A stretch of DNA of 64,000 nucleotides from Nitrospirales bacterium (lineage in GTDB: Bacteria > Nitrospirota > Nitrospiria > Nitrospirales > UBA8639). Every line of letters starts with the position of its first letter. Position 1 is the first letter of the stretch. Of this stretch, positions 4,566-49,952 are shown piece after piece. The translations under genes were made by a program, and so were the position numbers. Location of the stretch: the NCBI GenBank assembly GCA_963555755.3, contig OY820905.2:3840001-3904000 (forward strand), written 5' to 3'. A model generated the notes under the pieces. It was not told where the DNA came from and ran no database searches. It saw only the letters and a program-made list of their open reading frames with translations.

Positions 4566-5960
4566 CTATCCAATAAGGACCCGAGACTCGGGATAGCGGT
4601 ATCGAGCCGGAATGGTGGTTTGGACCGCGAACAGCCCAATCAGCAATGGGCCAAATCGGCCTAGGAGCATGGAGACGATAATGACCAGTTTTCCGAAATC
4701 CGTGAGTAAGGCAGAGAAACTGCGGCCGTCCCCATCACCTAGCGACATGCCGACAATGCCCATGGCAGATGTGACCTCAAACATGATGCTCAAAAACGGC
4801 CGTTCTTCCGTAAAGGCTAAGGCTAGCGTGAACAGAGTAATGGTGGTAAAGGCAAGAATGCACAACACAAATGCCCTGACAATAAGATCTTTAGGAATGC
4901 GCCGGTGAAACACTTCCACATCAGCTTTTCTCCAGAGTACGGCCCAAATTGTGAGCCAAATAATGGCAAACGTGGTGGTTTTAATACCGCCAGACATGCT
5001 CCCGGGAGAGCCGCCAATCGTCATCAGTAACAACAGAAAATACAGCGTCGCATCCTTCATGTCTCCGATATCCATGGTGGTAAATCCCGCGGTGCGAGAG
5101 ACGGTGTGGAAATGAGCAACTGCGATACGCTCTCCCAGGCTCAAGGGGCCAAACGTACGAGGATTGTTCCACTCCAGGATCGTGATCCCCAGGGTTCCTG
5201 AAATCAACATGACCAAGGTGACGACGACCACCAATTTGGTATGAGTCTGAAAGCGAAACCGTTTGCCGGTGACGTTGTCCCAGGCATCATGAAAGAGAAA
5301 AAACCCAAGGCTGCCGAAGACGATTAAAATCGTCACGATAAGATTAATGGGAATGTCGGATTGATAGGCAATGAGGCTATCGGAGAATAAGGCAAACCCC
5401 GCATTGTTAAAGGCGGAAATCGAATGGAAGATGCCGGCGTACAGCGCTTGCCCCCATGGCATATCCTGGGCAAATCGCAGTGTAAGGAACATGGCTCCGA
5501 GACCTTCGAAGATCACGGTGGCGACTGCCACGATTTTGACATAGCGAACCGTCTCCCCCATGTCTGAGACACTGAGCGATTCCACGAGCATCATCCGGTC
5601 GCGCAACCCAATGCGATGTCCCAGCGCGAGCAAGATGAGTGTGGCCATGAGCGCATACCCGAGTCCGCCGATTTGGACTAGCATGAGAATGACGAGTTGG
5701 CCAAAGAGGGTAAATTCCGTTGGTGTGTCCATGACAATGAGGCCAGTCACGCATACGGCGGAGGTTGAGGTAAACAGCGCATCAAGAAATCCAAGCTCCA
5801 CGCTCTCTGGCGTGGAAAACGGCAACATCAAAAGAACCGTTCCAATTAAAATAAGCCCTGCGGCGGCCAAAGCGACGATTTGGCCGGGCAGCAACCTGAT
5901 GGATGACAGGCGCCTCAGAAAAGATTCGTGTCGAGTCTTCGTGTGTTCAGTGAAGGCCAT
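4566..5960 (-). CDS. TrkH/KtrB family potassium uptake membrane subunit
   Basis: Pore-loop motifs FTSTSAVCVTGL, SAFNNAGF, SRTAGFT and IGGSPGSMSGGIKTTT. Likely start ATG 5960. Confidence 0.92.
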   Translation of the reverse strand: MAFTEHTKTRHESFLRRLSSIRLLPGQIVALAAAGLILIGTVLLMLPFSTPESVELGFLDALFTSTSAVCVTGLIVMDTPTEFTLFGQLVILMLVQIGGLGYALMATLILLALGHRIGLRDRMMLVESLSVSDMGETVRYVKIVAVATVIFEGLGAMFLTLRFAQDMPWGQALYAGIFHSISAFNNAGFALFSDSLIAYQSDIPINLIVTILIVFGSLGFFLFHDAWDNVTGKRFRFQTHTKLVVVVTLVMLISGTLGITILEWNNPRTFGPLSLGERIAVAHFHTVSRTAGFTTMDIGDMKDATLYFLLLLMTIGGSPGSMSGGIKTTTFAIIWLTIWAVLWRKADVEVFHRRIPKDLIVRAFVLCILAFTTITLFTLALAFTEERPFLSIMFEVTSAMGIVGMSLGDGDGRSFSALLTDFGKLVIIVSMLLGRFGPLLIGLFAVQTTIPARYRYPESRVLIG

Positions 5961-26009: not shown

Positions 26010-26364
26010 AATCCTCGCTTCCTCCTGCTCTAAATCAATCGCTTCCCCGACTCGATCAAGAACCTCTCTTGCTTGACTGGAAGATAGCCCGGCTTCAAGG
26101 ATCAACTCCAATATCTTTTCAACTAAGACGTTCCCAAACCTGCTTTGGATGTTGCTTGGAATTCTCAGGAATGTCTTCCAATTCTAAAGGAGTCCTCGCT
26201 TTCGGATTCTTCTGCCGTCACTCACGTATAGCATCCAGAATATCCTGCTTCTTCATCACACCTTTCTTCTCCAACACTTCAATCAATGCGGCCACTTCCC
26301 ACATGTTGGAAATGGTGAGTTCTTCAAGGGTGACGATTTCTTTGGGGTCGAGGGGTTGAGCTAT
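26010..26364 (-). pseudogene. Decayed hypothetical gene
   Basis: Protein-like frame (A)QPLDPKEIVTLEELTISNMWEVAALIEVLEKKG.. with an ATA start and internal stops. Confidence 0.4.
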
Positions 26365-26404
26365 AATGGAGGAAGGATACTGTATTTAGGTGTGCTGGCA
26401 AAAG

Positions 26405-26435
26405 AAAAAGCCCCACCGCCGAAACGATGAGGCTC
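26405..26435 (-). terminator. Possible rho-independent terminator
   Basis: Minus strand AGAGCCTCATCG-TTTCGG-CGGTGGGGCTTTTT. Confidence 0.45.
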
Positions 26436-26583
26436 TCTGTTTGTGCAATGCTGTTATCGACTATTCGATTACGCTTGTGCTTTCCTCATTTGGCTCGCTT
26501 GCCTGAAGTCCTACGTGGAGAATTTCAACTAACTTTGGGCTTGACTCTTCGGTTTCTATTTCAGGACAGGAATAGAAAGCCTA

Positions 26584-26816
26584 TGAAGTGCGACCACTAT
26601 GTCGCACCGAGAAGGCCTTCATTATTGTTAGGTTATTTTAGGAATTCCTTGTAATTTTGTAAGATGGTGCGACCAACTTTCCGCAGTTTTTTTGGTATTG
26701 CGAATGCTAAATATGCAAAATTCAAAGGAATTTTTAATCATCATTTTGGCACAGACCTTACTTTATCTTGGTTTAGAAGATTTTTTTAACAATAAATTCC
26801 CTAGGGAGGTATTACC
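26584..26816 (+). promoter_or_regulatory. Sigma54-type enhancer/promoter, homologue of the flp promoter
   Basis: Palindrome GTGCGAC-N6-GTCGCAC (26588-26607); second half-conserved site at ~26667; TGGCACAGACCTTAC (26747-26761). Collinear with 48376-48610. Confidence 0.7.
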
Positions 26817-27083
26817 ATGTCGTTTTCCATCATCAACCCAGAGAATCAGCCCGTCGTCGTCGTCGTGGTCTTCGTGCTCGCGTTACTGGCTCTAGGCCTC
26901 ACCGTCCACAACAACCAGCAAATCGAGCGGGTGGCTGCATTCTATGGTGTTGCCTCGGTTAAAACCTTCGAGACATTGCAAGATCAGGTTGGTGATACGT
27001 CGGCCAATTTCGCGACGCTCGAAGCACGGGTCGCCAGGCTGGAAAGTCAAGGCGTGACTGCGCCTGAAGTCGGAGTCAATTAA
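26817..27083 (+). CDS. Orphan single-TM, coiled-coil small protein
   Basis: GGGAGGT RBS; hydrophobic N-terminal stretch, then heptad-like FATLEARVARLE. Confidence 0.7.
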   Translation: MSFSIINPENQPVVVVVVFVLALLALGLTVHNNQQIERVAAFYGVASVKTFETLQDQVGDTSANFATLEARVARLESQGVTAPEVGVN

Positions 27084-27215
27084 ACCCCTTAACCGGGGTC
27101 CATAGCGGTTCTGACCCACGACATTTTTCTAGTGAAGGAGGGGGTCGAGAAGAATGGGCTTCTACCCGAAAGAAAGATAATCATGGGGTAACCCGACTCA
27201 TTCACCATTCTCTTT

Positions 27216-27270
27216 GGATCATGCAGAATTTAGGGTTCTGGCAGCACAATACGATCAGGTGCAAATAAAT
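27216..27270 (-). repeat. 55-bp inverted repeat, right arm
   Basis: Partner of 25406-25460; its outer 8 bp are the IS1 target duplication. Confidence 0.85.
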
Positions 27271-27279
27271 TTGGCATTG

Positions 27280-27977
27280 TTAATTTAAGATATATCCCAG
27301 TTCGCCGTTCCATTTAGCCATCAAGAGCATGACGGAATGCCTCAGCATGGCTTCGCTTTTGCTGTAGCATTTCGTTTTCCGCCGGAAGCGGGCCAGAAAG
27401 TGGCGGAATAAGCTAGTGTAGCCTTCGACCGTGAAGGTTTCCGCTTTCGACTGACGGTGTTTCTCCGGGGGCACAAAGTGCTCATACGGTTCCCAATAGT
27501 CCGTCATGACTTGGGTAATCAGCGGACTTTTAATCGCGGCCCACAATTGCTTCCCAGTCACGATCCCTCGGGTGCCAGTGACAGCATGGAGAAAGCGTTT
27601 CCCAAGTCGATCAACAGCAAGCCAGACCCAGCAATAGTTTTTTTATGCCTCACGTAGCTATGCAGTTCATCGAGTTCGACGATCTGAGCGGCTGGCCGCT
27701 TGATCTGCTCCAGGTTTTCCCCGAAAGTTTTCACCCATTGATAGACCGCCACATGACTAAACCCCAAGATTCGACCAATGGATCGAAAGCCCAAACCTTC
27801 CAAGTACAGGGTCAACGCCAAGCGGCGCTGGGCTGGAGTCGCCGTATCGGATTTATGGGAAACGGTAAAAAAGTACTGACACGCTTTACACTTGTAGCGT
27901 TGGCGTCCTTTGTTGCATCCAGCTTTGACTTTGTCCGCACTGGCACACCGAGGGCAATTCAGCATCTTCGCCTCCAT
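27280..27977 (-). CDS. IS1-family transposase (InsA/InsB, -1 programmed frameshift)
   Basis: CPRC..CKAC Zn finger, HTH and ELDELHSYV; A7C slippery site at ~27637-27644; then TDYW..EGY..RHFLARF. Confidence 0.85.
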
Positions 27978-29808: not shown

Positions 29809-30902
29809 GTTTCCCGTCTTGGATTGATGGGAAGGTCTTAACATTGGCCAGAGGCACACCTGGATCGAAAATTAAACGGTGGAAAGTGAGGGCGAACAAC
29901 AAAACGGTCGCCAAACACAAGAGGCTATAATGAAGACGGATTTGATGAAAGGGGTGATAAAAAGTGATCGGGCATCGGGACCAGTTTCATTCAAAGCTTT
30001 GGCCGATGCGTATTTGTCACTTCCATCTATCAAAAAGCAACTTCATATGATAACAAAGTGACGGTAGGAAAGAACCATTGCCTTCCGTGTTTTGGTGGGA
30101 AACGGGTAACGATGATCACGCCCACCATGATTGAAATCTATCGGGAAAAGCGATGGGAAAAAGGGACTTGGTTTGGTACAACCCCCAAACCGGCAACGCT
30201 GAATAGAGAAAGATCCTTGCTCAAACACATGTTCGGTTATGCGATTCGGGAAGGATGGCTTCAGAAGAATCCGGTGAGTTACGTCAAACTAGAGAAGGAA
30301 AACAATGTGCGCGTGATCGGGTAGTAGACCCAGAGGAGTTTGAACGACTTCAAGCCCACTCAGCGCCACATCTTCAGGCCATTCACCTCATGGCGTATCA
30401 ACCCGGCATGCGGTCGGGAGAGCTTTTGGGTTTGACGTGGGACAGAGTGGGCATGAAAGCTGGATTGATTTGCTTGAGGCCGGAAGATACCAAAACCGAG
30501 GACGCGCGACTCGTTCCCCTGACGGCAGAGTTGACGCATCTTCTCAGGGACTTGTATAAATTGCGCTACCTTCTTAATGAAGATCATGTTTTCCTTTTGA
30601 AGGGACAGTGGGTGAATTCCATCAAGACAGCATTGAAAGCGGCATGCCGGCGGGCTAACGTAGAGAGTTTCCGGTTTCATGATTTTCGGCATGCGGCGGT
30701 CACGAACATGCGTCGAGCGAGGATTGATCATTTAACGATTATGCGAATCACTGGACACAAGACATTGGAAGTGTTTAAACGAAACAATAGCTTCCTGGAG
30801 GGTGATTTGAGGGAAGCAGCTTCCTGTTTTAACACCTATTTAACACTAGCCCATTCCAGCCAAAAGACCGACACGCCTAAGTCGTTGATAAATCAAGTAT
30901 AG
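29771..30902 (+). pseudogene. Tyrosine recombinase (phage-type integrase) pseudogene
   Basis: Split over several frames; MRSGELLGL, FHDFRH and ITGHKT present; expected catalytic Tyr reads Asn (VFKRNN). Confidence 0.85.
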
Positions 30903-30977
30903 CGCCCGTAGCTCAATGGATAGAGCACTTGACTACGGATCAAGAGGTTACAGGTTCGACTCCTGTCGGGCGCGCCA
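30902..30977 (+). tRNA. tRNA-Arg (ACG)
   Basis: Acceptor stem GCGCCCG/CGGGCGC; anticodon arm CTTGA-CTACGGA-TCAAG; T loop GTTCGAC; encoded CCA. Confidence 0.97.
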
Positions 30978-36199: not shown

Positions 36200-37225
36200 T
36201 CTGTAAATAGCTCTTGAAGCGTAATAATATTGTCTTCCATACCAGTGATTTCCTGACCACTTACCAACTTCCAGGTCCCACGAAGAGGCGGTTTTGCTGC
36301 AGAATGAGTTCAATCGCAGAACCAATATAATGCCGCATGGCCTTCGTCGAAATTTCCAGGCCGGACATCGCCACCAGGGTTTCAATTCTCATCAATGTAT
36401 CTCGAGGAGAATTGGCATGAATGATTGTCAGAGACCTATCATGGCCAGTAGTCATCGCTTGCAGCATATCCAGGGTTTTAGCCCCACGAACCTCACCGAG
36501 AACAATTCGGTCCGGCCTCATCCGCCAGGTATTTGATCAGTTCCCGCTGCGTCGCTTCTCCCCGTCCCTCAACATTGAGGGGGGGGCCATTCCCACAACA
36601 TACTCTTGTCGAAGTTGAAGCTAGCCAGCACCTTCAATGGTAATAATTCGCTCGTCACCCGGGATAAAGCTCGACAAAATATACAACAGGGTCGTCTTCT
36701 CAGACCCTGTTCCTCCTGAAATCACAATGGTGAGACGAGACCGGACTGCTGCTTCCAACACCTGCCCAATTTCGGGAGTCATCGATGTATTGGAAAGGAG
36801 GTATTCACTTCGCTCCATCTGATGGGATGTTCAGGGCATGGGAGACCCAATATTCTTTCGGTTCGTGGGTGGCATCGATTATTTTTGGATATTTGGGTAA
36901 ATTCATTGCGGGTTTTTGGGGCGAAGGGGCTTCCAATATTACCTGGAGCAGTTACGTTGGCCTGAACAATTTTTTCCCCTTGGTTGGGGGAATGCATCAA
37001 GGCGTCTTGGTGTCCTAACAGGTAAAGGTGGAGCGAAGTGAATACCCCGTATTGATCATCAGATGAGTCATGTGGAGTGTATCAGGACTGAACTTTCTGA
37101 TAGAAAGCGCGGTCGTCCCATCGAGGGCTCAAGGAGGAAGGACCGCAGTGACACGTGATCAATCAGGAAGACGCGCATCAACTATTGGAGACGATTCGTC
37201 AATCCTTCGCCCGACCTGCTTCTGG
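36200..37225 (-). pseudogene. Decayed CpaF/TadA ATPase paralogue
   Basis: GRRIDESSPIVDARLPD, GGTGSEKTT (broken Walker A) and [12 protein letters not shown] fragments, with stops and frameshifts. Confidence 0.85.
36800..37046. mobile_element. 247-bp MITE (family G) inserted in the cpaF pseudogene
   Basis: Perfect 18-bp TIR GGTATTCACTTCGCTCCA, resembling the IS1595 termini in this window. Confidence 0.65.
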
Positions 37226-37800: not shown

Positions 37801-39333
37801 ATGATCAAAGAGAATGAACAACTGAAGAACCAGGCAATTTTTATGAGAGCAACTATCTTGAAATTCCTATTCCCTATTGGAGTGCTGTTGGTGATAAGTT
37901 TTTTCACGAACCACACCCTTGGTTGGGCGGCTGACCTTACGTTCCAAGTACTTAAAACCCAAAAACCCCAAAAGGTGGAATTGGTTGCGGGAACTTCAGT
38001 GGTCATAGAGGTTCCAATAGCCATCAAGCGAGCCTCTATTGCCAATACGGAAGTAGCAGACACCCGAGTCCTTTCTAATAAACATGTTTATGTTATCGGA
38101 AAAACCATCGGGGTGACGAATCTTACCTTGTGGGATAAAAAGAATGGGAGGGTTTTTGCAGTCCTTGATTTGAATGTCCGACCGGATGTGAGTCGGCTAA
38201 AGGCTCACCTCCATAAAGTTTTGCCAGGAGAAAAAAATGTCCACGTATCCGCTGCTCATGACAGCCTCACCATTTGGGGAACGGTCTCGGATCCTGTCAT
38301 CGTTAAGCAAGTCTTAGATATGGCTGAGCCGTATGCTCCTAAAAAAATTGTGAACCTTCTGACGGTGGGTGGAGTACAGCAAGTCATGCTGGAGGTCCGA
38401 GTCGCTGAGATGAGCCGTGATTTGTCAAAAAGATTGGGCTTTAACTGGACCTCTGTGAATTCAGTGGGAGATGGAATATTCGTGAATAAGTTGAACAATC
38501 TGGCTCAGATAGTTCCATCTAATGATGCTGTAATAAGTCCCCTTGCACCGGGGAATAGTTCTCCATTCGGCTTGGCTTTGAATCAGGCAGTCAACGTGGT
38601 GTTACGATTTCAGACAGGGAGCATCACCACGACCGGCTTTATCGATGCCCTGAAACAGTCTGGACTGGTGAAGATTCTGGCTGAACCGACCCTCGTAGCA
38701 TTAAATGGCCAGGAAGCGAGTTTTTTGGCAGGTGGAGAATTCCCATTTCCGGTGCCGCAGAACTTTAATACCACCACCATCAAATTTAAGAAATTTGGCG
38801 TAGGTCTCAGTTTTCGGCCGACGGTATTGGGAAATCACAAAATTAGTATAGAAGTAGCGCCAGAGGTCTCTGAACTAGATTTTCAAAATGCTATTACAAT
38901 CCAAGGTTTTACTATCCCATCGATTACAACCCGACGAGTCAAGACAGTGGTAGAACTAAAAGATGGACAGAGTTTTGCTATTGGAGGGCTGATTCGAGAG
39001 AACGTCAAAGAGCAAATATCTAAATTTCCCTTGTTGGGCGATATTCCTATATTGGGTGTTTTGTTTCGGAGCAGCTCCTTTCAAAAAAGTGAGACGGAAT
39101 TAGTCATCATCGTAACGGTTCATATTATCAAACCGCTCGATGTCGTCAAGCAGACAGTTCCCACAGATTTTTTCGTGGAACCTAATGATTACGAATTTTT
39201 CATTGAGGGGAAAATGGAGGGGCCGAGGCAATCCAAAGACGGAAAAGCCTCAGTCACATCTTTACGGAAATCCTCAAAGCAGCGAACAACAACAGTAGGA
39301 TTGGATGGAGAGTTCGGTCATATATGGCCATAA
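37801..39333 (+). CDS. cpaC: Tad pilus secretin CpaC/RcpA
   Basis: QQVMLEVRVAEM, LAEPTLVALNGQEASFLAGGEFP and FPLLGDIPILGVLFRS. Confidence 0.93.
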   Translation: MIKENEQLKNQAIFMRATILKFLFPIGVLLVISFFTNHTLGWAADLTFQVLKTQKPQKVELVAGTSVVIEVPIAIKRASIANTEVADTRVLSNKHVYVIGKTIGVTNLTLWDKKNGRVFAVLDLNVRPDVSRLKAHLHKVLPGEKNVHVSAAHDSLTIWGTVSDPVIVKQVLDMAEPYAPKKIVNLLTVGGVQQVMLEVRVAEMSRDLSKRLGFNWTSVNSVGDGIFVNKLNNLAQIVPSNDAVISPLAPGNSSPFGLALNQAVNVVLRFQTGSITTTGFIDALKQSGLVKILAEPTLVALNGQEASFLAGGEFPFPVPQNFNTTTIKFKKFGVGLSFRPTVLGNHKISIEVAPEVSELDFQNAITIQGFTIPSITTRRVKTVVELKDGQSFAIGGLIRENVKEQISKFPLLGDIPILGVLFRSSSFQKSETELVIIVTVHIIKPLDVVKQTVPTDFFVEPNDYEFFIEGKMEGPRQSKDGKASVTSLRKSSKQRTTTVGLDGEFGHIWP

Positions 39334-39348
39334 GAAGAAGGTAAACCT

Positions 39349-39636
39349 ATGAAAACAACTTTAGTGATGGTGGGTGCTATCGTTTGTGCGTTAAGCGTGC
39401 TGGCTTGTCAAGGAAGACCGACGAGATTGAGCCCAGACTTCGGTTCATCGGCAAGATTGGTTGTCGAAAATCAAATATTGAACCCAAATGCTCCAACAAG
39501 TCTTGACCCCGTGGAAGGCATGGATGGCAAGGCATCCCTCAAAATTTTAGAGCAATATCATAAGTCTTTCGAGGGGAAAAGGAAGCAAACCGAGAGGGCT
39601 GGTTTCGTTATCAATGCAGGCTCGTCTAAAAAATGA
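39349..39636 (+). CDS. Small Tad-associated lipoprotein (pilotin/CpaD-like position)
   Basis: Lipobox VLAC; DFG...QILNPNA motif; immediately follows the secretin. Confidence 0.7.
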   Translation: MKTTLVMVGAIVCALSVLACQGRPTRLSPDFGSSARLVVENQILNPNAPTSLDPVEGMDGKASLKILEQYHKSFEGKRKQTERAGFVINAGSSKK

Positions 39637-39758
39637 GTTGGGTTCGAAACTCAAGGAGATTTTTGAAATGTGAAGAAAGAGGATCTCGTTGAAATTCAAT
39701 CATTATGAAAGATGACGCCATCGGGAAATTATGATTTCAGTGAGAAGGAGGCAAAGTC

Positions 39759-40205
39759 ATGTTTCGAGAATTGGTCCGGCTTAAACCTGTGAAACGGAAA
39801 CACGTAATCTGGAGGGACAACCGTGGTGCTGCGGCCATCGAAATGGCCCTTGTGCTTCCGATCCTGGTGGTTTTAGTTCTGGGGATTATGGAATTTGGAA
39901 TACTCATGTTTTCCCAACAAGTGATCGTCAATGCAAGTCGTGAAGGAGCGAGACAAGGTATCGTGCTGGCCACCCCACGACCTACGGAGGGAGACGTGGA
40001 GAATGTTGTGGCTAATTACCTTACTACGTCCACCTTAGATAGTGGTCTTGCTGATGTGACCGTAGAAGGTGCTGGTGGTGCAGGGGGAACGAACCTAACG
40101 GTTTCAGTCAATTATCCTTACCAGTTTATAGCGCTTAGCAATTTTGTGCCAGGATTGCCTGATCCGTTTCCTTTAACTGCTTCGACAACCATGGTTTTAG
40201 AATAG
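39759..40205 (+). CDS. tadE: TadE-like pseudopilin
   Basis: RG/AAAIEMALVLPIL...NASREGARQG. Confidence 0.9.
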   Translation: MFRELVRLKPVKRKHVIWRDNRGAAAIEMALVLPILVVLVLGIMEFGILMFSQQVIVNASREGARQGIVLATPRPTEGDVENVVANYLTTSTLDSGLADVTVEGAGGAGGTNLTVSVNYPYQFIALSNFVPGLPDPFPLTASTTMVLE

Positions 40206-40299
40206 GGATTTCCAAAACAATAACAGGGTGCCTAACCGACACTTCGCGGTGAATGAGGATCTCATCCTTTTTAGTTTTTGGGGAAAGATTGAGGGAAAA

Positions 40300-41376
40300 A
40301 TGAAGATTCTAAGAAATAAAATGAAAATAATCATTTCCGAAAATCGTGGGGCTGTTGTGATCACAGTGGCCCTGATCTTAGGTGTATTGGTTTCGATTAC
40401 CGCCTTAACCGTTGATATCGGGTACGGGTTAGTCACGAGAACGCAACTGCACGCTATTGCTGATGGATCTGCATTGGCAGGGACTCGACAACTCGGGCTG
40501 GTCTATGAAGGGCTGACCTCAGCTGAACAACAAAATTATACCCTGTCCAGTATGGGACAACAGGCTATTACGACAATGGTGAACAGTGTTGGGCAAGCTA
40601 ATGAGGCGGGAGGACAGGCTATCACCATAAACGATGGAGACATTCAGGTCGGGCGATGGGACTTTGAAGCGCAAACGTTTACTGCAGGCTTGAATAGTCC
40701 CAATGCCGTCAGGGTAACAGCACGTCGGGACCGTGCAGCCAATGGTCCGATTGTCACCTTTTTTGCAGGGATTATGGGCATTAACACGATAAATGTGTCC
40801 GCAACCGCGACAGCGTCACTGGGGGCCCTGAGTACTACCAATGTGGGCGACCTGCCGGCTCCCATAGGAATATCGGAGTATTGGTATACACAAGGAGAGT
40901 GGTGTGGTGAGAGCATAAAGTTTCACCCAACGGGAACCCTTGACGGTTGCGCGGGCTGGCATACATATGAGGACCACCCGTCCAATGCCAGAAGGTTGCG
41001 TGATATCATTGATGGCCTTGAAGATCAGTCCTATGAGTCCCCAGAGACTCAGGCTGGAGACTCTTCCTTTGAATTTATCGGTGGGGATGTGGCGTCGGCA
41101 TTTTCGAATTTTCAAGAACTTTATGAGACCAGGAAATATGACGAGGAACCACATGACACCTGGGCAACCTCCGTCGTTGTCTATGACCGGGACGATTGTT
41201 CCAATCCGAATAAGGATATCCTCATTGTAGGATTTGCCAAAGTTGAGATCTATGAGGTCCTTGGACCACCAGAGAAAACGATTAAGGCGACGGTTTTGTG
41301 CAATGAGTACGAGGCCGGGCGGTCAAGTGGAAGTAATTTTGGTTTGATGGGAACGATTCCTGGCTTAGTGCAATAA
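40300..41376 (+). CDS. tadG: TadG-like pilus assembly protein
   Basis: RG/AVVITVAL..VDIGY..QLHAIADGSALAG and NAVRVTARRD. Confidence 0.82.
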   Translation: MKILRNKMKIIISENRGAVVITVALILGVLVSITALTVDIGYGLVTRTQLHAIADGSALAGTRQLGLVYEGLTSAEQQNYTLSSMGQQAITTMVNSVGQANEAGGQAITINDGDIQVGRWDFEAQTFTAGLNSPNAVRVTARRDRAANGPIVTFFAGIMGINTINVSATATASLGALSTTNVGDLPAPIGISEYWYTQGEWCGESIKFHPTGTLDGCAGWHTYEDHPSNARRLRDIIDGLEDQSYESPETQAGDSSFEFIGGDVASAFSNFQELYETRKYDEEPHDTWATSVVVYDRDDCSNPNKDILIVGFAKVEIYEVLGPPEKTIKATVLCNEYEAGRSSGSNFGLMGTIPGLVQ

Positions 41377-41386
41377 CTCCGTTGAT

Positions 41387-42679
41387 GTGATTCGTGCAGA
41401 AATAATAATGATGAATGAAAAACTTTCAGTATCAGTCCAGGTTGCTGATGAACAAGTCAAAACCGCTTTAGAGGGCATAATCAGTGATACCAAAGATTTT
41501 ATGGTAAGTCAGCCGGGAGGGCTGGATCACCTTGATTTCCTCATTATGGAGTTGGACGAAAATAATCCCACCAAAACGTTTTCACAAATTGAGGCCAACC
41601 TGAAAGGGTTTCCCCAAACAGATATTTTTTTGACTTGTCAAACCATTGATGCGCCAACGCTCTTAAACGCCTTTCGAATTGGCGTAAAGGAATTTATTCC
41701 CCAACCCCTGAACCGGGACGAAGTTCAGCAAATTTTTGTCCGTGCCCAGGAAAAACATCAGGGATGTTCAGTGCCCGCTCCTTCCCAAAAACCGAAAGGT
41801 CGTGTCATATCCATACTGGGTGGCAAAGCTGGGGCGGGAGTAACCACCCTTACTGTCAATCTGGGGGTCAGTTTGCAAAATTTGGGAAAATCCGTCGTGA
41901 TTCTCGATCTCAATTTTCACAGCGGAGATGTGCCAATCTTTTTGGATCTTCAGCCGACACGGGGCATCTTTGAGGTTGCCAGGAATCTGGCCAGACTGGA
42001 CGATGCGTTTTTGTTGAGTTGTCTCACCACGCATAGTTCCGGTGTATCGATTTTGTCTCTAGACGAAGCACGGCCTTCAAAGATAGGGGACAAAAGAACA
42101 GATAAGATAACTTCTTCAACGATGCATCCGGTGCTCGAGCTCTTGGTAGGTTTATTTGATTACATTCTTATAGATTGTGGAACGGTCCTAGATGAACGCA
42201 TGGTAAAGATTTTTGAACAATCAGCCATGTTATTTGTCCTCTATACCCTTCGGCTTCCTGTGATTAAAAAAACCCAGCGTCTTTTACAGATTCTCGATGA
42301 GATGGGATATCCCAAGGAAAAAAGAAAATTGATATTAAATGCCTTCGTTCCAGAAGCAGAAGCTCTTATGCTCGAAACCGAAACAATTTTTGAAACGAAG
42401 GTGTTTGTGAAAATCATGGAGGATCTTCCAAGCGCGAACACCGCTGTCAATAGTGGAATACCAATGGTAATTGGGGCGCCCAAAACAGTCGTGGTGAAAG
42501 CTTTTCAAAATCTAGCCTATTTCTTGATTGGCAAGAAGCCACCGAAGAAAAAAAATGAATTACAATCAATTCTAGCGGTGTTCAGCCGTACAGGTGTGCG
42601 GGGAATATGGGCGTCTCTACAAGACAAATGGGTAAGGCCAAAGGTTAATCCGAACATAAGTCAGGAGATAAAAACATGA
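41387..42679 (+). CDS. cpaE: CpaE/TadZ (pseudo-receiver plus MinD-like ATPase)
   Basis: [35 protein letters not shown]. Confidence 0.88.
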
Positions 42680-44013
42680 CATTCTTCTCAGGCAATGATT
42701 CCACAGAGGTTTTTGAAGCCCCATTGACGGGGACCAACGCAGATTATGTGGATGTGAAGGAAAAAGTGCATCAACAAGTTCTGGAAATGTTAGACCTAGC
42801 CGCCCTTGCAAAACTGAGTTCTGAAGAAATTAAGTCTGAATTGAGAAATATCATTATGCGGATTATCAGCGAGCAGAATTTTCCTCTTAATTCAGTTGAA
42901 CGAGATGGGTTGGTGGCAGAGATTGGGCATGAGATCATGGGCCTTGGTCCTTTAGAGCCCTTGATTGAAGATGGCACGATCAATGACATTTTGGTGAATA
43001 GGCCCGATCAAGTGTTTGTTGAACGGAAAGGGAAGCTTCAACTCACGAATGTACGGTTCCGCAATGAAGCGCATTTACGAAAAATCATTGACCGAATCGT
43101 TTCGTCGGTTGGGAGACGGGTTGACGAATCTTCTCCAATGGTTGATGCCCGTTTAACTGACGGGTCTCGCGTCAATGCCATTATTCCTCCGCTGGCGTTG
43201 GATGGCTCTTGCCTATCAATCAGAAAATTCAGCAAAGACAAATTGACGGTTCATGATCTCTTGAACTATCAGACATTGATTCAGCCGATGGCGGAACTCT
43301 TGGAAGCCATTGTGAAAGGGAGACTCAATGTTCTTATTTCAGGTGGAACGGGCTGTGGAAAAACAACCGTTTTGAATATCTTGTCAGGATTCATTCCTGA
43401 TGATGAACGCATCATTACCATCGAAGATGCCGCGGAGCTTCAACTCCGTCAAGAACATGTTGTTCGGTTGGAGACTCGTCCTCCGAATGTCGAGGGACAA
43501 GGCGAAGTGACGCAAAGGGAATTGGTCAAAAATAGTCTGAGGATGCGGCCCGATCGAATCGTCATGGGTGAGGTGCGCGGAGCGGAAACGCTCGACATGT
43601 TGCAAGCGATGAATACTGGTCATGATGGGTCTCTGACCACTATCCATGCGAATTCCCCGAGAGATGCGTTGACAAGGATAGAAACCTTGGTGGCCTTGGC
43701 TGGATTGAATATTTCCACCAAGGCATTGAGGCACTATGTGAGTTCGGCTATTAATGTCATTATCCAATTGGCCCGGCTCTCCGATGGAGGCCGTAAAGTC
43801 ATGAGTATTCAAGAAGTTTCAGGGATGGAGGGGGAGGTGATCACCCTGCAGGAGATTTTTGCCTTTGAGCAGACAGGATTAGGCGAAAACCGAAAAGTTG
43901 TGGGACGGTTTAAGGCGACAGGAGTAAGGCCAAAGTTCGTGGATCGCCTCAAAGCCTTAGGAATTGATGTGGATCCGGATATATTCGATCCATTAGAAAT
44001 TACCGAAGTGTAA
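42676..44013 (+). CDS. cpaF: CpaF/TadA pilus ATPase
   Basis: [33 protein letters not shown] and MNTGHDGS. Confidence 0.95.
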
Positions 44014-44033
44014 GTCTTTCCAGAAAGCCGTTT

Positions 44034-44999
44034 ATGAATATTGTTATCGCCATTGGTTTGTTTATCACCGTCGTGCTCCTTCTAGAGGGACTCTTTTATT
44101 TCTATCGTTCTTCGCTAAGCCCTGAAGCGAGGCGCATAAACCAACGTGTCCGGCGAGGAGAAATTAGGGACACTGTGACAAAAGAAGTCAAGATCCTTCG
44201 CACCCGCAATTTGAGCGAGGTGGCATCGTTTCGAAAAGTATTAGAAAGTTCGGTTCAAATCAATTTTATCGAGCGACTGCTCCGACAGGCCGACAGTCAA
44301 CTTTCCGTTGGCGTCTTTCTGATGCTATCGGCTCTTTTGGGAATCAGTGGGATTATGATTTTTAATCTCTTCAGTATGCATCTGCTTGCTGCTGTTGGTG
44401 TTGGGGTCTTAATGGCCTGCATGCCTTTGGTGATGTTGTTGCGGCAAAGAAAAAAGAGATTTGCGCTCTTCGAAAGGCAATTGCCTGATGCCTTAGACTT
44501 AATCTCGCGAGCGCTACGGGCGGGTCATTCTTTATCGGTAGGCATGAACATGATAGGCGAAGAATTAGCTGCACCAATTGGTAGCGAGTTTGAACGAACT
44601 GTTCAAGAAATATCATTTGGGGTTCCTACCCAAGATGCGTTAGGCAACCTTTGTACTCGGATTGATAGTCTAGAGTTGAAATTCTTTGTCACGGCTTTAT
44701 TGGTTCAATGGGAAACAGGGGGCAATCTTATCGAAATCCTTGAAACGATTAGCGATCTCATTCGCCAGCGCTTTGAATTGCTTAGCCGAGTTCGATCACT
44801 TTCTGCTGAGGGCAGGCTTTCAGCTATCATTTTGTTTGGGATGCCTATAGTCCTCGCTGGCGTAATCAGTTGGGTCAATCCTGATTATATTATTATCATG
44901 ACGGAAGATCCGATTGGGCAGGGCATGTTAGCCTGTGGTGCGTTTCTGATGACCCTCGGAGGTATTATAACGAAAAGAATGGTAAACATCGATGTGTAA
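44034..44999 (+). CDS. tadB: TadB inner-membrane platform protein
   Basis: QLPDALDLISRALRAGHS, ETGGNL and LSAEGRLSA. Confidence 0.92.
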   Translation: MNIVIAIGLFITVVLLLEGLFYFYRSSLSPEARRINQRVRRGEIRDTVTKEVKILRTRNLSEVASFRKVLESSVQINFIERLLRQADSQLSVGVFLMLSALLGISGIMIFNLFSMHLLAAVGVGVLMACMPLVMLLRQRKKRFALFERQLPDALDLISRALRAGHSLSVGMNMIGEELAAPIGSEFERTVQEISFGVPTQDALGNLCTRIDSLELKFFVTALLVQWETGGNLIEILETISDLIRQRFELLSRVRSLSAEGRLSAIILFGMPIVLAGVISWVNPDYIIIMTEDPIGQGMLACGAFLMTLGGIITKRMVNIDV

Positions 45000-45014
45000 T
45001 CAGTCAGGCCTGAC

Positions 45015-45968
45015 ATGAGCGAAATATTTACTCCTACAATTCTTGTGGCTGCATTTGCTTTTTTAACAGTAGTATTAGCTGTGGCTGGAACATCTTCGTT
45101 TTGGGAGACCAAACAGCAGGGGCAAGAGCTTAGAAGGCGTGTGAGCGGAAAAGGGGCCGTAAAAAACCAGGCGCAAGGGCAAAAGGTTGTTCAGAAAAGG
45201 GTTTTCGGTTTGTTGGAGTGGTTGGGTAAAACCTCTCAGTCGAAAGATTCTCAAGAGGTTACCTTTTTAAAAAAATCTCTTGTTCGCGCCGGCTACAGAG
45301 AAAAAAGGGCTCCTATGTATTTTTCGGGAGCTAAAATCATTCTTCTCCTGATAGGAGTCGTAATCTTCACATTGATTCATGTGTTCATTTTTCCTCTCCT
45401 CGAGACGCAATGGGTGTATGGATTGTATGGGGGTTTTGCTTTGCTCTTTTTTTATCTCCCGAATTTTTGGTTGAACATAAAGACCGGTAAACGGAAAGAT
45501 AATATTTCGAAGGCTATTCCTCCTACTCTCGATCTTCTGGTGGTTTGCGTAGAAGCAGGGCTGGGGTTGGATGCGGCCATCAAACGGGTAGGAGAAGAAA
45601 TTCAAATTGCTCACCAAGAATTGTATGAGGAATTTCAAATCTTGACTCTTGAATTGCGAGCTGGGCAATCAAGAATTACGGGATTGAAAAATTTGGCTGA
45701 TCGTACAAATCTAGATGAGATGAGGAGTTTAGTGGCATTGTTGGTCCAAACCGATCGGTTTGGAACCAGTTTGGCTCAAGCCCTACGAGTTCATGCGGAT
45801 ACGGTTCGAAAAACCCGACGCTTTAAAGCAGAGGAATATGCAGCAACCTTGCCGGTTAAATTAATGTTCCCAGTTGTATTATTTATTTTTCCCAGTCTCT
45901 TCTTGGTGTTATTGGGGCCGGCTGTGGTGCGAGGCATTCGGATTCTCTTGCCCACACTTGCCCAGTAA
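45015..45968 (+). CDS. tadC: TadC inner-membrane platform protein
   Basis: LDLLVVCVEAGLGLDAA, QTDRFGTSLAQALRV and KLMFPVVLFIFP. Confidence 0.92.
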   Translation: MSEIFTPTILVAAFAFLTVVLAVAGTSSFWETKQQGQELRRRVSGKGAVKNQAQGQKVVQKRVFGLLEWLGKTSQSKDSQEVTFLKKSLVRAGYREKRAPMYFSGAKIILLLIGVVIFTLIHVFIFPLLETQWVYGLYGGFALLFFYLPNFWLNIKTGKRKDNISKAIPPTLDLLVVCVEAGLGLDAAIKRVGEEIQIAHQELYEEFQILTLELRAGQSRITGLKNLADRTNLDEMRSLVALLVQTDRFGTSLAQALRVHADTVRKTRRFKAEEYAATLPVKLMFPVVLFIFPSLFLVLLGPAVVRGIRILLPTLAQ

Positions 45969-46031
45969 AATTCACAATGGGTTATGAAACAAATGGTCAA
46001 CACACAGAATCGCGAATTAGGGTATAAGTAA

Positions 46032-47012
46032 ATGTTAGAGTTGCGTTCATCCATCATTGGAAAATCTCCAGGCTTCGTGAAGGTGATGAGTTCTCTTCCA
46101 GCCTTGGCGGCCTCTGATGCCCCAATCATGGTTCTTGGAGAAACCGGGACCGGAAAAGAACTCATAGCCCAGGAAATTCATCAATATAGCCCAAGGGCAC
46201 CAAAAAACTTTTTCCCGATTAATTGCGCGGCTATTCCGAATGAACTTTTTGAAAGTGAACTTTTTGGATCTGCTAAAGGTGCCTTTACGGATTCTAAAAT
46301 GGAAAAGCCAGGAATTCTTCAAAGCATCGATGGCGGAACTCTGTTTTTGGATGAAATTGATTGCATAGATTTCAATACCCAAGCCAAGCTGTTACGATTT
46401 ATTCAAGAGGGTGAGTTTAAGCCCTTGGGATATTGTCGGAATATCAAGTCCGATATTCGCATTATCGCGTCTACCAATGCTGACTTAGGCCAAAAAATCA
46501 GGGATAAAAATTTCCGGGAAGACTTATTTTATCGCTTAAATGTTTTAAATATTACTCTCCCCCCACTTCGGGAGAGAATTGAAGATATCCCTCTCTTAGC
46601 GGATTATTTTTTGGAAAAATTTTCTTCTAAATACAAAAAATTAAATATGTCCTTAGCTCCAGAAACCATTCTTAGTTTTTTATCCTATGAGTGGCCAGGA
46701 AATATTAGGGAATTGGAGGGGATCATGGAACGCGCGATCCTTACGGCTCGCTCGACGTGTATTCAACCTCAAGACATTGTGTTTTCGATTCAAACTGATG
46801 AAAAGGCCTTCGGACAGGTCCCCTATTATGTTGCGAGAAATGAAGTGCTCGATCGCTTTGAGCGGTCCTATCTTCTTGTAACATTAAGGGCTTACGGTGG
46901 GAATGTATCGCGAGCTGCGGATGGGGCAGGTGTCGACCGACGAATATTGCAGAGGCTTCTTCGAAAACACCAAATTGACCGTTCGGAATTTTCCGAAAAG
47001 ATGTCTCCCTAA
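46032..47012 (+). CDS. Sigma54-dependent enhancer-binding protein lacking an N-terminal sensory domain
   Basis: GETGTGKE, ESELFG..GAFTD, LFLDE, FREDLFYRLN, WPGNIREL and a Fis-type HTH. Confidence 0.92.
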   Translation: MLELRSSIIGKSPGFVKVMSSLPALAASDAPIMVLGETGTGKELIAQEIHQYSPRAPKNFFPINCAAIPNELFESELFGSAKGAFTDSKMEKPGILQSIDGGTLFLDEIDCIDFNTQAKLLRFIQEGEFKPLGYCRNIKSDIRIIASTNADLGQKIRDKNFREDLFYRLNVLNITLPPLRERIEDIPLLADYFLEKFSSKYKKLNMSLAPETILSFLSYEWPGNIRELEGIMERAILTARSTCIQPQDIVFSIQTDEKAFGQVPYYVARNEVLDRFERSYLLVTLRAYGGNVSRAADGAGVDRRILQRLLRKHQIDRSEFSEKMSP

Positions 47013-47103
47013 TGCGATCAATTTTCCGTAGAGTTTGGATGTTTGGGATAAAAGGAAAAGACTGGAATAAAAATTCTTTTGGTTTTGCAATGAAAGGGGT
47101 TCC

Positions 47104-47580
47104 ATGCTGATAGAGCCATTAATAGGGGCAATGATAGGAGGGCTTGTTGCCTATTTTAAAAAAAGTCAAGAAGAGAAAATTGAGGACGACCATAGCAAGG
47201 TTGTTAGGCTAGGGGAATACTTTACCACACTTGCCGCTTACCTGCGAGAGATCCAAAAGGATTTAAGTCATGGGATTGTGCCCATCGAAGCTGGCAACAA
47301 AGTTAAGAGAACAATGGAAATTTTTTCAAAAAGTATTGAGAATATGGCAGGCACAAGCCAAAGCGCGCGTAAAGCATTACGTGATGACCATGAAGCAATG
47401 AGACAGTGTTTGACAGCCGGTACATTTCTGGAGGAAATGGTTCAAGGGAAAATCCTATATGCCAATAACGTAGAGCGTCGGGAAAAATTATATGACCTGG
47501 GGTGCACTGCGGCGAACCTTGAGAAAAGGGGGAACCAGCTTCTAGGTCATCCTCATTCAGGTATTCATCCCAGTGCCTAA
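47104..47580 (+). CDS. Hypothetical protein with N-terminal anchor
   Basis: 158-aa ORF with a hydrophobic N-terminus. Confidence 0.55.
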   Translation: MLIEPLIGAMIGGLVAYFKKSQEEKIEDDHSKVVRLGEYFTTLAAYLREIQKDLSHGIVPIEAGNKVKRTMEIFSKSIENMAGTSQSARKALRDDHEAMRQCLTAGTFLEEMVQGKILYANNVERREKLYDLGCTAANLEKRGNQLLGHPHSGIHPSA

Positions 47581-47942
47581 AACCGGGATTCCCCATTCAA
47601 TTGCCAAACATCTCTGTATTGGTTAAAACAAAACATCCGCTGATAACACGTCCGGCCAAAAATGCTTAAAATAGGCCGAGCCTTCCTGGCAACCATCAAT
47701 CGGATTTTCCTGGCAGTTCAGGTGGAGAATAAAAATTTTCAAAAGAATAAGGAATCCCAAAGACCACTTGGGTAATCTACTGGCCACATCAAATTGTTTA
47801 GGCTTCTAATATTCTCATCATATTACCACTATCTCAGGTTAAAATTCAGGGATCAATCGCAATTTTGGTGGAGTGAGAACTAGCCCATCGTTTGTTATTC
47901 TCGTGACGGGGTCCGCCCGGACCATAGCGCTACTCCACATAA

Positions 47943-48082
47943 GGGCACCTCTACAAACCAGGCATTTTGGTGAGGGCAAGGAAGCCGCGCGCGGAAAACC
48001 GGAGTGTATGGGCGAATACATGAGGATGTGAGCACGCGGCTGACGCCGGCATCACGGAAAAGGACGGTTTTTAGAGGTGCCC
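47943..48082 (+). mobile_element. MITE family B, copy 4
   Basis: 140 bp; flanks ATAA/ATTA. Confidence 0.85.
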
Positions 48083-48375
48083 ATTACATATTTCCGTTCG
48101 ACCTCCTCGCTTCGTCTTACGGATTTCCCGTAGCTGCAGCATCTCATGCGGTCTCTTCCTGACGTCAGTGGACATTGCTGCGGGGGGGGCACGATGAGAT
48201 CGTGCTGCAGCTATACAAGAAAGAAAGCCCCCACAAGGAGTATCCTACAGGGATAATGCGGTAATGCTGCTTGGATATTACGATAGCCTGTTCACACCAA
48301 AGGCCAAACTTTACCAAAATTTCAACTGGTCCAAATCCACAGGGTTCTGTTTCTGTGTACAAAATAGAATGCATG

Positions 48376-48610
48376 TGAAGTGTGACAAGTAAGTCGCACA
48401 GAGAGGGCCTTGATCTTGTGGGATTATTTTAGGAATTCCTTGTGAAGTTGTAAGGATGGTGCGACAAACCGTCCGCGGATCATTTTTATTGCGAATGCTA
48501 AGTCTTTAAAAAACAAAGGAAAATTTATCATCGTTTTGGCACAGAGATTGCTTGTTATATCGTGTAGAAGTTATTTATTAACAGTTTTAGGACGGATGGA
48601 GGTACATACC
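48376..48610 (+). promoter_or_regulatory. flp sigma54 promoter with two upstream palindromic activator sites
   Basis: TGGCACAGAGATTGC (48537-48551); GTGTGAC-N6-GTCGCAC (48380-48399); second site at ~48459. Confidence 0.8.
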
Positions 48611-48784
48611 ATGGTCAAGGCAATGGTAAGGTTTTTAAAAGATGAAGAAGGGGCCACCGCGATTGAGTATGGGCTTATTGCGGCGCTAATTTCTGTCGCT
48701 ATTATTATTGGCGCAGGCCTTGTTGGAACAGCGGTAAACACAACCTTTACGACTGTCGCTGGTAAAATGACTCCAGCTAATTAA
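48611..48784 (+). CDS. flp: Flp/Tad major pilin
   Basis: RFLKDEEG/ATAIEYGLIAALI; GGAGG RBS. Confidence 0.95.
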   Translation: MVKAMVRFLKDEEGATAIEYGLIAALISVAIIIGAGLVGTAVNTTFTTVAGKMTPAN

Positions 48785-49118
48785 AAAGCACTGGCGACCT
48801 TTAAGTAAGCGGGTTAAGGCCCTCTGGGATTTTTGGAGATGTTTTTCTGGAATCTTAGGGGGCCATCCCCTCCAAAATGGTTTACGAGCGAAATTCCCCT
48901 CCGAGCAACACACAGTCTTTTCCTTATCCCTCTGCGTAGTTATTCGTTCATATACACACCTGGGTTTATAGGTTTCATACTTTGGAAGACCAGATTCCTA
49001 TAATAAAGTTTGAAGGGAAACATAAATTTGGTCTTTGGTGAGTACTACCTAAATTGCGCATTTCGAAAGTCAAGAGAGGGGTGTACTCTATAAGAAAAAT
49101 CTACATTGGAGGGATAAT

Positions 49119-49952
49119 ATGTTACGACATCGGCTTACTCTGGGATTAGCTTTGGGAACCGGACTGTTCACCAGCATTTTTGCCTATAATGCCATGAATG
49201 ATGGAGCTATTGAAAAAACCGTTTCTCAGTCCATGCATGAGTATAATTTTCAATCAGTGGCTGTGGCCTCGACTGCTCTTCCTTGGGGAACGGTTTTTGC
49301 TGAGGAAATGGTCAAAGTTGTGGATTATCCGGATGGCAGTGTGCCAAGTGGCGCCTTTGCAGCGTATGATTCTTTGAAGGGCAGAGTTCTCTTATCCAAT
49401 CTTCAACCCAATGAACCTATTCTGGAGTCAAAACTCGCTCCTGAAAGCATGGAAACTGGTGGGGTTTCGGCGATTTTACATCCAGAAAAACGGGCAATGG
49501 CTGTTAAGGTCAATGAAGCTGTTGGTGTTGGTGGGTTTATGAAGCCTGGTGATAAGGTTGACGTTATGGTGACCATTGATAGGGGTGGAGAGAAAAAGAA
49601 AAAGATTATAACGAAGACTGTGCTGGAAAATATCTTGGTTTTAGCGAGTGGTATTCACATGGAGCGACAAGGTAAAGAAGAAGAAGCTGTTCCCGTCAAG
49701 TATATCACTTTAGAAGTGACTCCCAAGGAAGCTGAAAAGCTTGCTCTGGCTATCAATGAGGGGAATATCCGTTTTGCATTGAGAAGTCCGCTGAATTCTG
49801 ATCCGATTCTCACAAAAGGAGAAACGGTTCCATCCCTTTTGGACTCCTATACAGCTAAGAGAACTGCCAGGAAATATAAACCGCAAAGAAAGCAGAGGGT
49901 CGAAATCCTAAAAGGGGTTGAACTGAGTTCTGTTTCGGTTGTGAAGATGTAA
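49119..49952 (+). CDS. cpaB: CpaB/RcpC pilus assembly protein
   Basis: SAF-like N-terminal part; RAMAVKV..GVGGFMKPGDKVDV; TVLENILVLA; TLEVTP. Confidence 0.92.
   Translation: MLRHRLTLGLALGTGLFTSIFAYNAMNDGAIEKTVSQSMHEYNFQSVAVASTALPWGTVFAEEMVKVVDYPDGSVPSGAFAAYDSLKGRVLLSNLQPNEPILESKLAPESMETGGVSAILHPEKRAMAVKVNEAVGVGGFMKPGDKVDVMVTIDRGGEKKKKIITKTVLENILVLASGIHMERQGKEEEAVPVKYITLEVTPKEAEKLALAINEGNIRFALRSPLNSDPILTKGETVPSLLDSYTAKRTARKYKPQRKQRVEILKGVELSSVSVVKM

Follow-up and report, generated by a model that had tools for sequence, protein, structure and literature searches.

Locus and surroundings

We analysed a window of 64,000 nucleotides from a Nitrospirales bacterium, in which the region upstream of a gene for an 88-aa protein (copy A) resembles the promoter of the pilin gene flp (copy B). 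The features of the window referred to below are as follows.

26405..26500, minus strand: remnant of the tail of a PEP-CTERM gene with a terminator-like hairpin, a dispersed repeat shared with a third copy of the promoter (copy C)
26514..26547, plus strand: right end of an IS256-family element, 34 nt, without transposase, matched at 100% in five other places
26588..26607, no strand assigned: predicted activator site 1, perfect palindrome GTGCGAC-N6-GTCGCAC (counterpart in copy B, 48380-48399)
26667..26685, no strand assigned: predicted weaker activator site 2, with one perfect half (counterpart in copy B, 48459-48477)
26747..26762, plus strand: sigma54 -24/-12 element, with G>A in the GC of the -12 box (TTAC; TTGC in sister strains)
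26805..26810, plus strand: Shine-Dalgarno sequence GGAGGT, from the sequence
26817..27083, plus strand: single-pass membrane protein of 88 aa, belonging to an unnamed family and with a coiled-coil tail, from sequence, profile search and folding
37801..45968, plus strand: Tad genes cpaC, cpaD-like, tadE, tadG, cpaE-like, tadA, tadB and tadC (cpaC, tadE and tadG by Pfam)
46032..47012, plus strand: sigma54 enhancer-binding protein, receiver-less, with AAA+ and Fis HTH domains only, the predicted cognate activator
48346..48610, plus strand: copy B, the flp promoter (palindrome 48380-48399, site 2 48459-48477, sigma54 element 48537-48552)
48611..48784, plus strand: flp pilin, 57 aa (PF04964, E 2.9e-19)
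49119..49952, plus strand: cpaB/rcpC, by domain search

The genes at 37801-45968 named here tadA, tadB, tadC, cpaD and cpaE are those we take to be such from sequence and position. The Tad cluster (37801-49952) is circularly permuted: activator, flp and cpaB follow tadC, compared with the order activator-flp-cpaB-cpaC in a genome from another family of the order (G484). Genome G005 and sediment contigs share the junctions of the window, and the permuted layout is thus population-wide; it could form a cascade in which the assembly genes are followed by the activator and then by the pilin. In this cluster we found no gene for a prepilin peptidase. The genome under study (G000) also has a second complete Tad cluster with cpaA, on contig C1 near 272-273 kb (L062), preceded by two c-di-GMP-I riboswitches (L062:4282-4362 and 4835-4915); of the 20 flp loci scanned in relatives, 18 carry such a riboswitch. 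Broken tadA fragments (62-66% to intact tadA) lie on the minus strand at 36200-37215, opposite the start of the cluster, and in genome G032 two tandem flp genes (L085:59-591) have a sigma54-like site with neither riboswitch nor dyad.

The surroundings of copy A are IS-rich, with IS1-like, ISL3 and IS66 transposases and an IS3-like orfA. Copy A is contained in an island of high-GC autotransporter-like DNA with several IS remnants, and an integrase fragment ending at a tRNA gene (30255-30974) forms its right edge. The only Rfam match in the window was one tRNA, and a reading of the region as a non-coding RNA was rejected. The five full-length contexts listed for the 34-nt IS256 end follow a transposase open reading frame or a broken one, and the IS256 copy in L064 has a PF00872 match. 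The repeat at 26405-26500, which combines 3' ends of PEP-CTERM genes with a shared hairpin, occurs at about 25 other places in this genome, and its sister copies translate as PEPSTMLLL...GYRMKKAQA followed by a stop. At C1:1257109-1257245, the C-terminus of a GDSL-type gene is made up of this repeat together with a decayed IS256 end.

Three copies of the flp promoter

Copy A (26571-26791) and copy B (48363-48583) are 77.7% identical over 224 nt (E 2.6e-39), and their local alignment score is 188, whereas 500 shuffles averaged 18.5 and never exceeded 34. The duplication of the flp regulatory region, which an earlier note had proposed from the sequence alone, is therefore real. The strings named there as shared are all present, namely the first palindrome, the -24 box TGGCACAGA (at 26747 in copy A and 48537 in copy B), a -12 box reading TTAC in copy A as against TTGC in copy B, and the Shine-Dalgarno sequence with TACC-ATG. 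Two palindromes had been described as common to the copies; the first is perfect, but the second is only a half-match, TGCGAC-N6-TCCGCA.

Copy C lies outside the window at C1:2724913-2725137 (2.72 Mb). It is 86% identical to A over 229 nt and 77% identical to B, and the identity between A and C (84-86%) is higher than that between A and B (73-76%). Copy C runs into the first 28 nt of flp, with CTG in place of the ATG start codon, before an IS66 element cuts it off; the remainder of flp was not found on the far side of this element. Since both B and C carry flp, the simplest account, with three taxa and a midpoint root for the direction of capture, is that A lost flp and gained another gene. 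The five A-type promoters form one clade (100/99).

The edges of the similarity differ from those first described. On the right, it had been said to end at the ATG. The coding regions after A and B are indeed unrelated (alignment score 17, equalled by 163 of 500 shuffles), but the last ~24 columns before the ATG are already less alike: A matches B or C at 11 of 24, a figure that a one-base offset lowers, compared with 17 of 24 between B and C. The right-hand junction thus falls between ~26795 and the ATG. On the left, the similarity begins not at 26584, as had been thought, but further left, at 26548, directly after the IS256 end. In both A and C, homology to B begins at the base right after the 34-nt IS256 right end, and these two copies have in common this end and about 150 nt further upstream.

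We consider it reasonably probable that an IS-associated promoter capture made the 88-aa gene a satellite of the regulon of the Tad activator, with a copy that is likely weakened in this genome. The flp promoter and gene would have been duplicated, and the duplicate would then have gained the IS256 scar at its left edge and have been copied again. Copy C would later have been broken by IS66, and in copy A flp would have been replaced by a pre-existing 88-aa gene at or just before the start codon. The flp-type copy C, the IS256 left edge and a protein family far older than the promoter copy bear out the promoter capture that was among the possibilities raised in the earlier note.

Nijveen, Matus-Garcia and van Passel (2012; PMC3575422) described putative mobile promoters, where, as here, genes of one genome that are not paralogous have similar upstream regions; the definition asks for an identity of at least 80% across 50 nt or more upstream of two such genes. 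Copies A and C, at 86% over 229 nt, fall within this range of identity, and A and B, at 77.7% over 224 nt, lie just below 80% overall, with 20/25, 20/24 and 20/23 in 25-column windows; the downstream coding sequences are not paralogous. IS elements are involved in the known captures, as they probably were at copy A. Unlike in those cases, a whole sigma54 module has moved here (two predicted activator sites, the -24/-12 element and the leader), the IS scar is preserved along with an intermediate flp-type copy, and a name can be put to the activator. Of the 1,298 upstream regions in this genome, as delimited by crude gene calling, 21 are low-copy duplicates that stand before unrelated DNA; A and B are among them, as are two duplicates from the small contig. 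The duplication is thus an event of an ordinary kind for an IS-rich genome. The promoter DNA had no match in 40 relatives except one of 25 nt.

A genome scan for the palindrome, which had been suggested as a check, found the perfect 14-base dyad GTGYGAC-N6-GTCRCAC exactly three times on the scanned contig, C1 (a second contig is of 14 kb), and these are A, B and C. Each lies 156-159 nt before a sigma54 element; one more 12-base dyad has no sigma54 motif nearby. The putative upstream activator sites of A fall within the ~80-200 nt expected of sigma54-dependent promoters. Elsewhere on C1 (L063:4958; G000:C1:664958), a perfect sigma54 element without a dyad stands before a PEP-CTERM gene, and its upstream region is AT-rich, resembling that of the flp promoter.

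Close relatives were found in three marine-sediment or sediment runs. In four of the five metagenome loci a complete promoter with the canonical TTGC precedes the gene, and all four keep both sites, the spacing and the Shine-Dalgarno sequence. Copies with -24 GG and -12 GC are therefore the rule among the complete sisters (4/4), and the TTAC of the window, which departs from it, is derived in the window strain. The suggestion that copy A serves as an activator decoy had rested on this TTAC, which is the strain's own change. In the available part of PMC7910581, three sigma54 promoters of Myxococcus were about 3- to 11-fold lower in activity once their -12 GC had been replaced, and some working sigma54 promoters carry single-base deviations. 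Thus, the change from TTGC to TTAC likely weakens copy A and would lower its output in this genome, but may not silence it. The fifth locus (L010) has lost the enhancer and the -24 box to an IS3-like remnant, and damaged promoters are therefore found in two of the six known copies.

These damaged promoters suit another explanation, that copy A is a neutral passenger or a decaying relic of IS shuffling, which would drive hardly any expression and, at the most, act as a decoy that titrates the activator. The IS-rich surroundings, the 21 upstream regions similarly duplicated and the relative rates, which do not tell A and the broken copy C apart, are also consistent with a relic, as is the gene neighbourhood: in three sister loci a gene for a 140-aa hydrophobic protein lies 3' of the 88-aa gene (L009:749-1171, L011:880-1302 and L008:10510 onward; no Pfam match), and it is absent from G000. 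Motif columns are better kept than spacer columns (35/37 vs 104/134, p 0.017), but the broken copy C shows much the same pattern (34/37), and this conservation is thus not evidence of selection after capture; nor do changes specific to A differ between motif (1/37) and spacer (7/132). However, the four complete metagenome copies keep every element listed above, the open reading frame is full length in 56 of 56 aligned proteins, and a simple scan of 26200-27400 found no forward sigma70-type site. We therefore regard a relic as unlikely.

The 88-aa protein and its family

The gene had been called an orphan, which was wrong. Besides 11 close cluster matches with 66-92% identity, 87 of 1.84 billion representatives matched at E<=0.001 in a profile search, 83 of them of <=130 aa, and these make up a family of about 83 diverged clusters with identities of 22-45%. 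Its members are transmembrane/coiled-coil proteins whose common features are an IS-x-EN-x-P-type motif on the N-terminal side, a single hydrophobic helix, the coiled coil and an Ala/Pro tail. With identities this low, as compared with a promoter about 15% diverged, the protein family is older than the promoter copy. Among six close copies, pN/pS was 0.30-0.88, from small counts. None of the Pfam and NCBIfam models covers more than 9 of 60 members. The 88-aa protein was folded as one long helix, residues 8-77 (pLDDT 69.5 and 77.4). It had no match in the PDB by Foldseek and none of >=0.9 in the Atlas, and a PDB sequence search gave generic coiled coils only.

With the queries used, no family member was found in 114 genomes of the family, in 400 genomes of the phylum, or in the GTDB and viral scans, plasmids and phages. 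Matches in 2 of 400 order genomes (E 0.006-0.008) and 2 of 19 others lay within long frames and were dropped as weak, and the 5/200 phylum matches were generic membrane coiled coils without the N-terminal motif.

The description of the product as a transmembrane/coiled-coil protein without a pilin motif holds: the Flp motif G/xxxxEY occurs in none of the 83 members, and the 88-aa protein has no PF04964 match. It could nevertheless be thought that the gene is a highly diverged flp paralogue encoding a pilin-like subunit, so that nothing was captured. The two genes have the same start position, and the 88-aa protein resembles Flp in its single hydrophobic helix and in a G-x6-F spacing that the Flp tail also shows. 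This explanation is, however, largely refuted and has hardly any likelihood left, given a profile-profile probability of 0.3% and 0.09% against 45 Flp sequences, the missing motif, the lack of DNA similarity, and the breadth and independence of the family.

Contigs from the runs X19 (26542-27215) and X9 (26726-26917) likewise join the promoter and the gene. The neighbours of this cassette differ among L007, L008 and L011 and none of them are Tad genes; Tad genes lie beside none of the five homologous loci, three of which are on contigs of only 1.1-3.1 kb. The G484 genome (92% complete), which has the activator-flp module, gave no family match. The idea that the gene is an undescribed member of the Tad regulon thus survives for a lineage-specific satellite, but not for a gene linked to Tad loci or shared with G484.

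The differing neighbours in L007, L008 and L011, together with a similarity that extends to the Shine-Dalgarno sequence and TACC-ATG, might also point to an ancient co-regulation in which gene conversion or other recombination keeps the copies alike, or to capture in the opposite direction. The closest relative of A, however, is copy C, which has flp sequence, and the set of dyad, sigma54 element and flp is conserved in another family (G484), which makes flp the older owner of the promoter. We consider an old link of this kind very improbable, and return to promoter capture by the 88-aa gene.

The predicted activator and its regulon

The protein encoded at 46032-47012 has matches to PF00158 (E 1e-61) and PF02954 and no N-terminal domain. 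It has the features of an enhancer-binding protein, namely an AAA+ domain, a GAFTGA-like loop (GAFTD[A/S]) and a C-terminal HTH; its own loop is GAFTDS and its recognition helix DRR. Its cluster has 50 members, and the 15 listed are all of 326 aa, with GAFTDA in 13 and no sensory domain in any. The GAFTD loop is compatible with activation, since NorR G266D activates (available part of PMC2941729), and DVU2106 (OrpR) naturally has GAFTDA (available part of PMC4641369). NorR and OrpR have regulatory domains, whereas the window activator has none, and GAFTDS is a variant of its own.

G484 encodes a 325-aa receiver-less GAFTDA activator with an ERR helix, which two small genes separate from TGCGGC-N6-GTCGCA; after this come a perfect sigma54 site and flp-cpaB-cpaC-cpaD-tadE-tadG. 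Because the dyad occurs on C1 only at A, B and C and the same set is found in G484, 46032-47012 is the predicted cognate activator of the dyads, and we infer that it needs no phosphorylation. The co-activation by the locus' own activator that had been envisaged thus gains comparative evidence, from the G484 set and the distribution of the dyad, as a prediction from sequence. The activator would bind two predicted sites, one lying ~160 nt and the other ~80 nt before the -24 box, oligomerise and open the sigma54 closed complex without phosphorylation, and the 88-aa gene is predicted to be co-activated with flp.

Among the matches listed, a [DE]RR recognition helix was read in one of 30 activator loci from five genomes, that of G484, and in none of the 13 other activator matches in G000, two of which have no readable helix. 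A GTDB scan found the pattern of dyad and sigma54 element in 17 genomes, where a uniform-composition estimate gives about 8 by chance; four of the 17 have an activator within 4 kb, two of these with a DRR helix. With a relaxed pattern, 6 of 400 order genomes matched, as against 2 for a reversed control, and only the G484 match lay by Tad genes; the strict pattern was found in none of 114 family genomes. Eight closer relatives of the activator carry an N-terminal domain, and the 16-20 kb around each of them contain no Tad genes; a near-dyad is present in two of these eight regions. Near-identical activator and 158-aa proteins labelled Caldithrix (P0067, P0081) occur in one MAG, possibly by a binning error.

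Among known systems, DVU2114 of Desulfovibrio vulgaris, a sigma54 activator located by flp/cpa/tad, likewise targets a pilin promoter and a distant operon, according to the available parts of PMC3333781 and PMC4641369. It is a REC-AAA-DBD regulator with GAFTGA, unlike the receiver-less window activator with GAFTDS; in the same available text, its shifted oligonucleotide lacks a TGYGAC dyad, and the genes that it targets at a distance are tadE/tadG. The Flp/Tad system of Pectobacterium was rejected as a precedent, since its sigma54 activator did not regulate flp (available part of PMC3767616), and Nitrospira is not mentioned in the part of PMC12316311 that was available. In the literature searched, with most subscription journals outside its coverage, we found no description of the activator-dyad-sigma54-flp module in Nitrospirota.

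PspF is devoid of a sensory domain, and PspG is a small protein of the membrane. As far as the available part of PMC3467454 describes it, this sigma54 activator drives its adjacent operon and one unlinked gene, pspG, much as is predicted here. The window system differs in having no Psp homology above noise and no known inhibitor, and its satellite promoter is a recognisable DNA duplicate. The window case resembles the DVU2114 and PspF/pspG regulons and belongs to neither.

By analogy, the 88-aa protein might be a feedback partner of the receiver-less activator, anchored in the membrane and serving as its regulator or stress effector. Induced by the activator, it would, like PspA, PspB and PspG for PspF, restrain it or protect the membrane during secretin/pilus assembly. 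This would suit the 15 listed activators without a sensory domain, the single long helix of the folding models, Lys/Arg counts that favour a cytoplasmic tail in 38 as against 13 of 83 members, and weak PspB matches in the family (PF06667/TIGR02976, 1 and 4 of 60 members at E<=0.01; best E 6e-5). But the window protein has no PspB match, nor does G000, and such matches are expected for any transmembrane helix with a coiled coil. Furthermore, G484 has the activator-flp module with no family match, and the promoter link looks recent. We find a feedback role distinctly doubtful. Equally speculative, and put forward with little confidence, is the idea that the sensor-less sigma54 activator of the Tad pilus of the window, a second one besides that preceded by riboswitches, recruited the 88-aa protein as a feedback inhibitor or pilus-stress effector by capture of the whole enhancer. 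If true, a Psp-like circuit would have arisen from unrelated parts, with its intermediates still visible in a marine Nitrospirota genome, and the Tad pilus of the window would be under sigma54 control where most relatives use c-di-GMP riboswitches. Under promoter capture as we prefer it, our best guess is that the 88-aa protein sits in the inner membrane, crossing it once, and serves as an accessory factor or a stress effector induced together with pilus assembly.

Promoter capture is already a known kind of event; here one can name the donor and the intermediate copy, the IS scar, and the activator along with its likely site. The value of the case lies in a named activator-site pair and an unnamed protein family. 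The pair, a DRR/ERR helix with a predicted TGYGAC-N6-GTCRCA site, is testable, and it suggests a sigma54 route to the control of flp in a family where c-di-GMP-I riboswitches stand at most of the flp loci scanned. In the sister strains, the pilus activator is predicted to switch on the 88-aa gene, and this would give a first regulatory handle on a family of about 83 diverged membrane proteins.
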